This document shows, piece after piece, positions 5,266 to 7,661 of a stretch of DNA of 64,000 nucleotides; within the stretch, counting starts at the first letter, position 1; every line of letters starts with the position of its first letter. The position numbers and the translations under genes were made by a program. Where the stretch lies: positions 3,214-67,213 of the forward strand of contig CBDDKZ010000003.1 of NCBI GenBank assembly GCA_965230415.1. The letters run 5' to 3'. This stretch comes from Cytophagales bacterium. Its GTDB lineage: Bacteria; Bacteroidota; Bacteroidia; Cytophagales; JAAEPT01. Below the pieces are notes generated by a model, which worked only from the letters and a program-made list of their open reading frames with translations, was not told the origin of the DNA and did not search any database.

Positions 5266-7170
5266 CTATAGTGGTTCGATAGGTGATTGCTGAGCCTGGG
5301 ATTTGTGCTCGCTATTCCACATTTTATGCAATTCCTTTGCTGATATTGGATGATACCAATGTTTAAGGTAAATATCTTTTGGAATACAGATGAGGTTGAG
5401 TGGCTTTTCGGAGAAAATATCAGCATTACGTACACTGCCACGTATTACACCTGTATTGCCTAGTGGTACCCAGGCCGGTGCCAGGCTGCTTTCATAGCCA
5501 CCCATAGGATATACGCGCAGTCCGGTGTCCATAGGGAAATATACGAATCCCGATTTGCTACCACTTCTAATAAGCTGTTCACCTGCTGTAAGACTGATGA
5601 TGCGCTCATCAGAATTTTCAAATAGGCTATGATCGTCATTAAAGGCATAACCTGCTTGTTTCAAATGATCAAAGAAAGATTTTTTGGAATTGCGTTGAAC
5701 CAGGTAATTGCTCAAAGTCTGGCCACCAAGGTATCTTTGTACTTCCAGGTCATCGAGTCCATGTAGCGAAAACGAAGGTTGGATGCGATAACATTCATCC
5801 TTGTTTCTCTCTGCAAAGTATTTACACACCATGTGGGCAAAGTCCGGGTTGTCATCAGTAGTTTCGACTAAAATCTTAATAGCGTCAAAAGTTAAATTCG
5901 GTGGGGGAAAGATATCTTTGTCCAGTTCGGCGTTTCGTTTGAAACTTTGAATAGTGTCTGCCTGAATGTCGTCAATGGTAAAGGCTGCATGGCGTGCCGC
6001 CTTCTTGGTGACTTTTTTGGTAATAAAGGCCCCTAAATGAAATGATAGTCGCAAATGGCCGCAGCCATCTAGTTCGCTACTTGCTAAATTGGCCTCTCCG
6101 GCATTTACCGACTTTTTGCTCTCTAACATGTAGAGGCGGCCGGTTTTTTTATTCCGTAATGCATAGATGGCATTTGCTGTTTTTCTGTCTACAAATATTT
6201 CATAGCCGGCTGAAGTGCGAAGTACCGTACCGCGTTGGCGCAAAGCATCGGCGGCTCGTATACAGCGAATACTGTCAGTAACGTTTAGAATGAATCGCAT
6301 AATGCCTTTATCGGTGCTTGTGAGCCATGAAAATGCATTTTCTTCATAATCATGATATTGTTTTGTGATTTTTTCATTAATTGGAGAATGTGCCTTTAAA
6401 TAGTTGCTATGTTGCTCTTGAAAGGTTTGAAGGTTGGTGAGGTTTTCTGCATTCGTCAAATCACTCTTCTCCAGGCGCATGATTTTTTGCTCAAGAAACA
6501 AAAGCTTCAGGGGCTTTGATAAGATGGATACTATGTGCGCTCGTAGCTGCTGTCTGTCATTGAGTACATCGATAGGTAATTTGCTTTTACTATGTCCGAC
6601 TGAAAGCGCTATGATTTCACGGAAGATCATTTTTAATTGATCTGCGTTGTGCGTTTTTTCATATAAACAGCTCAATGTCCAGGGGATGTTTCCTGCATTT
6701 TTTGACCATAACAAGCTTACCATAGGTGCAAAATCATCGCTAAATACAAACTGAGCCGCGAATTCCGGGTGCATGAATCGTCCTGATTGAGTGAAATCGG
6801 ACATGCCAATGTCGTGCATATAGGCCAGCAGCACCGAATACCCTTTCATAAACTCCAGGTCATTACTCGCTCTCTTAGGAATTAACACACCGTTTGCCCT
6901 ATCCAGTACAACTAAAACCTGTTTGGCAACATCCCGGACATGTACCACACCGTGATCTGTAAAAAGTGCGATATGCTTGGATGGGTTTTTAAAAAATTCC
7001 GGATCGTTCTTCATGTGTTCCAGGGTGCCCTGTTCACTTACCTTCTGGTAAAATGATGTTTCAATGAATTTTCGAAACTCCTTTGGTAAATACCGGTCCA
7101 AATGATGATCGAAATCTGACTCCTGTTCCTGAAGGCTATCCGGAGTTGAATGAGGTATTGGCGTTTTCAT
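5266..7170 (-). CDS. HD-superfamily metal-dependent phosphohydrolase fused to a C-terminal cyclic nucleotide-binding (cNMP/CAP_ED-like) domain
   Basis: HD-type residues DHGVVH...LAYMHDIGM...MHPEFA...VGHSKS...RAADALR; C-terminal LTAGEQLIRSGSKSGFVYF...LGNTGVIRGSVRNADIFSEKPLNLICIPK fits the cNMP-binding beta-barrel pattern. Confidence 0.82.
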   Translation of the reverse strand: MKTPIPHSTPDSLQEQESDFDHHLDRYLPKEFRKFIETSFYQKVSEQGTLEHMKNDPEFFKNPSKHIALFTDHGVVHVRDVAKQVLVVLDRANGVLIPKRASNDLEFMKGYSVLLAYMHDIGMSDFTQSGRFMHPEFAAQFVFSDDFAPMVSLLWSKNAGNIPWTLSCLYEKTHNADQLKMIFREIIALSVGHSKSKLPIDVLNDRQQLRAHIVSILSKPLKLLFLEQKIMRLEKSDLTNAENLTNLQTFQEQHSNYLKAHSPINEKITKQYHDYEENAFSWLTSTDKGIMRFILNVTDSIRCIRAADALRQRGTVLRTSAGYEIFVDRKTANAIYALRNKKTGRLYMLESKKSVNAGEANLASSELDGCGHLRLSFHLGAFITKKVTKKAARHAAFTIDDIQADTIQSFKRNAELDKDIFPPPNLTFDAIKILVETTDDNPDFAHMVCKYFAERNKDECYRIQPSFSLHGLDDLEVQRYLGGQTLSNYLVQRNSKKSFFDHLKQAGYAFNDDHSLFENSDERIISLTAGEQLIRSGSKSGFVYFPMDTGLRVYPMGGYESSLAPAWVPLGNTGVIRGSVRNADIFSEKPLNLICIPKDIYLKHWYHPISAKELHKMWNSEHKSQAQQSPIEPL

Positions 7171-7661
7171 AAGGTAGAGATAACACTGTTTACGTCCGGG
7201 GTTAACGATAAGTACCTGTTTTTGAAGTGTGGGTTATTGGTAACTTCTTTTCCAAACCAGGTAGGTGCTACAAATTGTTCGGCAGCGTGTATTGATTTAA
7301 ATTCAATTTCAGCAATGCATAAGCCTGCAAGAGCACCATGGTAATGGTCTATTTCTATATCCAGTCCGGAGTACTTATAAGTGAAGCGTTCTTTTTCGAT
7401 GCGACGATCCTGTGTTAACACCCATAATTTTTCGAAAGTGTGCTCGTTGATGCTAAACTCTACCTCATTTCGTTTGATAGTACCACTCGATTTGACAGTC
7501 ATGAAATATTTCGTGTCTCGTTTTCGGATTCGAACTTCGTTTTTTTCATGTTCTACGGCGAGGTAACCCTGACTTATTTTTTCAGCTATTAATTCAGAAA
7601 CTACTTGAGGTAGTCTCGGTAGGTGGAATTTTCGTTCAATTTCTACAGGTAAAGTGGTCAT
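7167..7661 (-). CDS. CYTH-domain protein (triphosphate tunnel metalloenzyme; tripolyphosphatase or class IV cyclase-like)
   Basis: N-terminal EIERKF (EXEXK), ISQGYL, VRIRK, TVKS, RNEVE, IEKER, EIDHY, IAEIEF, PTWFGKEVT; its stop overlaps the start of the HD-cNMP gene (ATGA). Confidence 0.92.
   Translation of the reverse strand: MTTLPVEIERKFHLPRLPQVVSELIAEKISQGYLAVEHEKNEVRIRKRDTKYFMTVKSSGTIKRNEVEFSINEHTFEKLWVLTQDRRIEKERFTYKYSGLDIEIDHYHGALAGLCIAEIEFKSIHAAEQFVAPTWFGKEVTNNPHFKNRYLSLTPDVNSVISTL

Follow-up and report, generated by a model that had tools for sequence, protein, structure and literature searches.

The CYTH enzyme NeuTTM, a triphosphate tunnel metalloenzyme (TTM), is a specific tripolyphosphatase (PPPase) with a named Tyr28/Lys52 dyad and no significant cyclase activity, and the available text of its description gives no physiological source of inorganic tripolyphosphate (PPPi) for it and calls the existence and role of cellular PPPi unclear (PMC3440374). 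True class IV adenylate cyclases (AC-IV, CyaB) are distinguished, in the available part of PMC8233210, by an HF before the ExExK motif, loss of the first Arg of RxR and replacement of the second Glu of ExE by Ala. Triphosphohydrolysis by HD enzymes is found in more than one clade, namely in SAMHD1 and EF1143 (PMC8177086) and, outside the SAMHD1 clade, in DatZ (PMC8065100), as far as the available text of both sources goes. Pycsar and Pucsar systems consist of a cyclic nucleoside monophosphate (cNMP) cyclase gene and an effector that joins a cNMP-binding domain (CNBD) to TIR, or a 3TM effector (preprint 10.64898/2026.08.12.744502, available text), while the function of NTT-HEAT proteins with or without a cNMP-binding domain was given as unknown in the accessible portion of Major et al. 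(2017, PMC5381601). Here we describe a conserved, translationally coupled gene pair in a 64,000-nt stretch of a Cytophagales bacterium (contig CBDDKZ010000003.1; this whole stretch is the window, and all coordinates refer to it). Its first gene encodes a predicted NeuTTM-type CYTH enzyme, and its second a 634-aa protein that represents a new, uncharacterised HD-hydrolase family without a Pfam, NCBIfam or PADLOC model. The features of the pair are as follows.

7167..7661, minus strand: CYTH / triphosphate tunnel metalloenzyme of the NeuTTM type, 164 aa; Pfam PF01928, E 3.3e-8; predicted inorganic tripolyphosphatase
7167..7170, minus strand: ATGA stop/start overlap, read from the sequence; translational coupling
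5266..7170, minus strand: HD-cNMP open reading frame (ORF), 634 aa
5761..7170, minus strand: HD hydrolase module, aa 1-470; ligands H77, H119, D120, H134, H193 and D308, from conservation and AlphaFold2 models
5341..5721, minus strand: divergent cNMP-binding domain, aa ~484-610, from a fold match and a profile match; Asn for the canonical Glu at 572

Both reading frames and their overlap, which a preliminary description of this DNA had read as a two-gene unit, were confirmed in the sequence, and the 4-nt ATGA overlap of CYTH and HD genes also occurs in loci L003, L004, L006, L012 and L029. The loci examined were 79 genome loci (the best 80 of at least 131 confirmed) and 80 metagenome loci (the best 80 of 119). 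In 9/79 genome loci a CYTH gene is the immediate upstream neighbour of the HD gene, at a spacing of -20 to +10 nt, so the adjacency is more than chance; eight of these loci belong to the window's Bacteroidota clade, which has 11 in all, and the ninth is from Ignavibacteriota. Whether CYTH is a conserved neighbour had been posed as a check on the preliminary description. Further CYTHs stand within 4 kb at L065 (2.2 kb away) and at metagenome locus L086 (three genes downstream). In Bacteroidota the trees of the CYTH and HD proteins match each other, which is consistent with co-inheritance of the two genes. The pair has a GC content of 0.418, against 0.403 for the window and 0.392 for the 6.47 Mb, 97% complete source genome. 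In run X1 a single contig covers window positions 3000-7942 with 4 substitutions and zero gaps, and may come from the source sample itself; no RNA data set was listed as containing the sequence. Prediction of a CYTH-HD complex gave a score of 0.00, a value that speaks neither for nor against an interaction.

PDB matches of the window CYTH at E<=0.01 are confined to two entries of NE1496 from N. europaea (3typ/2fbl; E 4e-32, residues 6-154), which we take to be NeuTTM, and a 49-sequence CYTH profile matched no CyaB structure at E<=1. The EXEXK motif noted in the preliminary description is present as E7-x-E9-x-K11. The HFxxxxExExK of class IV cyclases is absent from 12/12 linked CYTHs, the window CYTH (N-terminus MTTLPVEIERK) included; the first Arg of RxR is intact (V-R44-I-R46), contrary to the small-residue swap of AC-IV, as is the second Glu of the C-terminal ExE (E118-I-E120), contrary to the AC-IV Ala. 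The window CYTH and the 11 other linked CYTHs thus fail all three AC-IV signatures. Y33 and K57 align with the Tyr28/Lys52 dyad of NeuTTM, and the NeuTTM-type set of ExExK, RxR, ExE and dyad equivalents is complete. By the AC-IV features in the available text of PMC8233210, the cyclase first proposed for this gene is not supported, and the caveat attached to that proposal, a polyphosphate or PPPi role, is the better reading of an enzyme nearest to NE1496. From its sequence, which carries all signatures of one, we predict the window CYTH to be a NeuTTM-type tripolyphosphatase rather than a cAMP-making cyclase. Precomputed domains of 18 longer homologues show this CYTH subtype fused to CHAD, uridine-kinase-family and NUDIX domains; no CYTH-HD fusion was found among them or among the collected family proteins. 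Elsewhere the source genome holds two further CYTHs and three class III cyclases, and no CHAD was found in it. One of its operons (G000:C5:1763437-1772225) combines a class III cyclase, a small-N-terminal-HD protein and what is, judging from its sequence, probably a polyphosphate kinase.

The 634-aa protein had no match in Pfam (E 0.1), NCBIfam or PADLOC, nor in the PDB as a single sequence, in keeping with the unrecognised architecture remarked on previously. Its HD ligands, H77, H119, D120, H134, H193 and D308, each reach 98-100% conservation in alignment columns of ~225-234 non-redundant rows, so the full metal-ligand set read earlier from the letters is confirmed. In the same alignment D72, H73, R131, E185, K195, D299, R302, R305, R311, R313, E359 and D405 are 97-100% conserved, and N361 is also near-invariant. 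The near-invariance of ligands and basic residues suggests that the enzyme is active and its site very basic. The H..HD..H..H..D ligands and the HD helical fold place the protein in the dimetal HD superfamily. The AlphaFold2 model of the whole protein has a mean pLDDT of 93.9 and a pTM of 0.91; residues 20-470, folded alone, match PPX/GppA C-terminal modules at Z 10.2-10.6, class I phosphodiesterases (PDEs) at Z 8-9 and SAMHD1 at Z 8.0. These model-based Z scores are middling for a helical fold and fix the superfamily, not the reaction. In the PPX/GppA match 6pc0 (residues ~30-434, Z 10.6, rmsd 3.2, 173 aligned), part of the ~200-aa middle region that had seemed unassignable corresponds to the C-terminal alpha/beta part of a PPX/GppA-like HD module; the assignment covers that part of the region only. 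Foldseek returned no match to the HD part at E<=0.001. In the ESM Atlas the matches were limited to two clusters labelled 'hypothetical', at 0.97-0.98, and one labelled HD/cNMP, at 0.78, which is a lead only. Pfam HD-CE (PF24391) weakly matches 8/74 family members, at best with E 0.002, and leaves the window protein unmatched at E 0.1. According to the available text of PMC8177086, the six-ligand H..HD..H..H..D arrangement is the YqeK-type motif, and the NTP hydrolase YpgQ likewise has a His at position -4 from the first ligand (compare H73).

Residues ~484-610 of the AlphaFold2 model superpose on yeast PKA-R 3of1 with Z 13.9 (rmsd 2.2, 111 residues aligned), which gives them the beta-roll with flanking helices of PF00027, and match PKG II CNB-A by profile at E 0.0055; the C-terminal cNMP-binding barrel proposed in the preliminary description is borne out as a fold. 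The phosphate-binding cassette of such domains is G-E...R, the Glu of which binds the ribose 2'-OH. The 634-aa protein lacks this canonical cassette: G571 (100%) and R581 (91%) are conserved at canonical spacing, and position 572 is N, V, T, A or S in 44, 15, 10, 7 and 6% of sequences, respectively. GE..R is present in 50/65 other cNMP domains of the genome loci, and a second cNMP domain, often with an intact FGE..R cassette, is fused to the family protein in 16/79 genome loci. This pattern suggests that the first, divergent domain is no longer a plain cAMP sensor. As the 2'-OH-binding Glu is replaced and the window protein has the divergent copy only, cAMP gating of that protein is doubtful.

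The HD family has 679 homologues among 7998 scored candidates and 570 cluster representatives at 50% identity (E<=0.001), and spans at least 9 phyla, including Bacteroidota, Ignavibacteriota, Cyanobacteriota, Chloroflexota, Actinomycetota, Armatimonadota, Verrucomicrobiota, Pseudomonadota and Chlamydiota; the closest homologues are from Bacteroidota. It is rare, well conserved and patchy in distribution, with members in 0/60 relatives and 0/400 genomes sampled from the phylum, and a scan of viral contigs found no relative. No description of the family or of its CYTH pairing was found in the titles and abstracts of the literature searched, a search with most subscription papers outside it. The family tree leaves out five loci with short matches (L034, L136, L139, L140 and L141). 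Four proteins of 1000-2600 aa contain the entire HD-cNMP module as a distant copy: P0250, P0251 and P0257 have it at the C-terminus and P0255 close to the N-terminus, a placement that resembles that in polymorphic effector proteins. The cassette is a canonical GE..R in all but one of them. Other fusions (L024, P0122, P0053, P0165 and P0113) bring in GAF-GAF with a second cNMP domain, hemerythrin, a methyltransferase or a TerB-like tail.

The preliminary description had linked the HD protein to cyclic nucleotides, and a wider tie to cyclic-nucleotide modules is seen across the family, with a cNMP-binding domain within 4 kb in 43/79 genome and 50/80 metagenome loci. The commonest neighbour, NTT-HEAT, lies within 4 kb in 27/79 genome and 35/80 metagenome loci and is absent at the window locus. 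In a cyanobacterial clade the HD gene follows a SulP-STAS-cNMP transporter, and elsewhere there are Popeye-cNMP and ABC-cNMP neighbours (L011, L014, L015, L073, L076 and L087). Nucleosidases are represented by three non-homologous enzymes, with 6 changes on the family tree: an IU-nucleoside hydrolase adjoins the HD gene in 10/159 loci, uridine phosphorylase overlaps it in L051 and is fused to it in L104, and a pyrimidine-nucleoside phosphorylase adjoins it in L107. The fusion (L104:364-3222), a 952-aa ORF of HD-cNMP and a full uridine phosphorylase (NCBIfam 461 bits, cut-off 262), was seen once, on a metagenome contig, and may stem from a sequence error merging two adjacent genes. At L086 the HD, NTT-HEAT, cNMP and CYTH genes follow one another, and a nucleoside hydrolase gene converges on them. 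Counted over zones of 0-2, 2-4, 4-6 and 6-8 kb, nucleoside hydrolase falls off as 13/1/0/0 and CYTH as 9/2/0/0; all neighbour classes are near zero beyond 4 kb. In this zone count the cNMP figure includes fused domains, and the three UDP hits represent two loci. An NCS2 permease follows the HD gene in L034 and L137, and a uridine kinase lies ~2 kb off in L078 and L079. A second, small HD protein within 4 kb in 13/159 loci means that the two HD proteins of such loci probably differ in function.

Since one reaction would explain both CYTH and the three unrelated nucleosidases as neighbours, our preferred if tentative reading, drawn from gene context only, is that the 634-aa protein is an NTP triphosphohydrolase (NTP -> nucleoside + PPPi) whose PPPi is cleared by CYTH and whose nucleoside is cleared by nucleosidases. 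The dimetal HD enzyme would hydrolyse a nucleoside triphosphate at the alpha-phosphate, with R131, K195, R302, R305, R311 and R313 as candidate triphosphate-binding residues; the coupled CYTH would split PPPi into pyrophosphate and orthophosphate, and adjoining nucleoside hydrolases or phosphorylases would consume the nucleoside. The C-terminal domain would be an allosteric nucleotide site, not necessarily for cAMP. Folds, ligand set, TTM signatures and neighbourhoods are observations, and from them we infer the substrate and products. The Bacteroidota version would likely serve nucleotide turnover or phosphate recovery, the latter in keeping with three relatives (L005-L007) that carry the pair in phosphonate or phosphorus-scavenging operons. 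These operons hold PbfA, GDPD-like, DUF5690, metallophosphoesterase and nucleotide pyrophosphatase genes. The fuller scenario is less assured still: the HD clade might have evolved NTP triphosphohydrolase activity independently of SAMHD1/dGTPase, under control of a repurposed cNMP domain and as the catalytic output of NTT-HEAT-cNMP modules, so that its CYTH partner would have an identified in vivo PPPi source.

A number of observations weigh against the triphosphohydrolase and its neighbours' part in it. The family is found most often amid cNMP signalling rather than catabolism. About six events underlie the nucleosidase loci, ten of which fall in two tight clades, and neighbour classes were counted by local models seeded from Pfam-verified neighbours of the same loci. 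CYTH is missing at 3/11 Bacteroidota-clade loci, and a single origin of the linked CYTHs, as opposed to independent recruitment, survived the approximately unbiased (AU) tests (p 0.22, 0.18 and 0.14). The source genome had no match to the nucleosidase or NTT seeds. A Lys and a Glu that 4 canonical NTTs share are missing from the 47 NTT-HEAT domains next to the family genes, so that NTP import by these neighbours is not supported. The family profile, aligned by hhalign to small template sets, reached 83% with HD-CE, 36% with a PPX-type set, 3.8% with SAMHD1-like and 0.3% with dGTPase templates; the PPX-type set was labelled 'RNaseY', and we take it from its sequences to be PPX-type HD. All HD phosphatases, according to the available text of PMC8177086, conserve an Arg at position -3 relative to the first His, and SAMHD1/dGTPase have it; in this family that position is G74 in 92% of rows.

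As the dominant context is cNMP signalling, a phosphodiesterase role stays alive, although we regard it as unlikely: the HD protein would be a cyclic-nucleotide PDE that ends signalling in cNMP-binding transporter modules, and CYTH a phosphate-housekeeping passenger in Bacteroidota. The class I PDE motif is YHNxxH, and H73 stands, as in that motif, four residues before the first ligand; the class I PDE fold matches at Z 8-9, cNMP domains are strongly enriched nearby, several loci have class III cyclases, and GAF-GAF and second-cNMP fusions occur in the family. The Z-scores, however, are not clearly above those of other HD folds, and PDEase_I gave no Pfam match to the 634-aa protein or family members. 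A PDE would leave the coupled tripolyphosphatase and the fused uridine phosphorylase unexplained, 13/159 loci already encode another, small HD protein, and the many basic residues, judged by their conservation, seem excessive for a single-phosphate substrate.

Another phosphoanhydride hydrolase, such as a YpgQ-like NTP pyrophosphatase, a YqeK-like Ap4A or nucleoside-polyphosphate hydrolase or a polyphosphate trimmer, with CYTH handling short polyphosphate, is to our mind improbable, even though the PPX/GppA C-terminal module gives the closest match in fold and the six-ligand motif is YqeK-type. The CHAD, uridine-kinase-family and NUDIX fusions of the window CYTH subtype fit such an enzyme, as does L019, where CHAD lies directly downstream of the HD gene and genes that from their sequence are probably PPK2 and PPX lie 5-7 kb off. 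Yet a polyphosphate context exists at only 1/159 loci, and nucleoside monophosphate or ADP products would need a further nucleotidase before nucleosidases act; none recurs.

Very unlikely, in our view, is the role first envisaged for the pair, a Pycsar-like anti-phage defence with CYTH as the source of a cyclic nucleotide by which the HD effector is gated. Two coupled genes with a very patchy spread (0/60 relatives, 0/400 phylum genomes) would suit it, dNTP depletion is a known mode of defence, cyclase-AAA-TPR genes are found close to some Chloroflexota loci, and the available text of the Pucsar preprint (10.64898/2026.08.12.744502) describes cyclase-STAND fusions as immune-type. But the CYTH, as described, has the signatures and structural matches of no class IV cyclase, the family is highly conserved, no viral relative was found in the contig scan and neither gene matches a PADLOC model; in a PADLOC scan of 122/315 neighbours (within 2.5 kb, genome loci), the 4 matches came only through generic ABC, cNMP or TPR domains. 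Restriction-modification genes stand beside two metagenome loci. The pair in the window is flanked downstream by a large predicted secreted protein and upstream by a divergent Rieske-glutamate-synthase gene. A PhnZ-like diiron oxygenase or phosphatase of phosphonate catabolism, to which the PbfA, DUF5690, GDPD-like and metallophosphoesterase neighbours of L005-L007 would point, is highly improbable, given only 3 related loci of 159, no account of the cNMP domain and nucleosidases, and, as a weak test, no oxygenase in the top 50 fold matches.

Of the flanking genes, the downstream one (window 3-5093, minus strand) is a frame of 1697 aa, still open where the window starts, with an N-terminus like a signal peptide, internal repeats and no useful Pfam match, and the upstream one (8063-9667, plus strand) joins a Rieske domain to a stand-alone glutamate-synthase FMN domain. 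A promoter/terminator scan gave signal at or below chance.

Set against described systems, the proposed NTP triphosphohydrolase shares with SAMHD1, EF1143, dGTPase and DatZ the HD fold (Z 8.0 to SAMHD1), a dimetal site, the proposed reaction and the proposed allosteric control by nucleotides, and differs from SAMHD1/dGTPase in lacking RxxH and HDIGHxPFxH, in its profile probability of 0.3-3.8%, in its cNMP-type domain and in its clade; it may work like a member of that family without being one. By sequence the HD family is nearest to HD-CE (8/74 members, hhalign 83%), without reaching the curated cut-off (the window protein is unmatched and the best member has E 0.002), and by structure to the PPX/GppA C-terminal module (Z 10.2-10.6). 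Unlike either, it has no HSP90-like or PPX catalytic domain and combines a full ligand set and helical and beta insertions with a C-terminal cNMP fold. The available text of PMC5381601 mentions no HD partner for NTT-HEAT(-cNBD) proteins, and the NTT-HEAT neighbours of the family lack the canonical charged residues of NTTs. Pycsar/Pucsar and the pair are alike in having two genes, of which the second encodes a cNMP-binding fold (for the pair, Z 11.8 against a PycTIR domain), whereas the pair has no cNMP cyclase, TIR or transmembrane effector, or defence context; the pair is neither a Pycsar/Pucsar system nor a class IV cyclase module. Like NeuTTM/CthTTM (cluster 2 of the sequence similarity network in the available text of PMC8233210), the window CYTH keeps ExExK, RxR, ExE and the Tyr/Lys dyad, and it differs from NeuTTM in its apparent inheritance, within a Bacteroidota clade, together with an HD-cNMP hydrolase. 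The pair makes testable where the PPPi destroyed by specific bacterial tripolyphosphatases comes from and what the widespread NTT-HEAT-cNMP modules control, and a nucleotide-gated NTP-degrading enzyme, if the proposal is true, would give cells a new means of depleting nucleotide pools or regaining phosphate.

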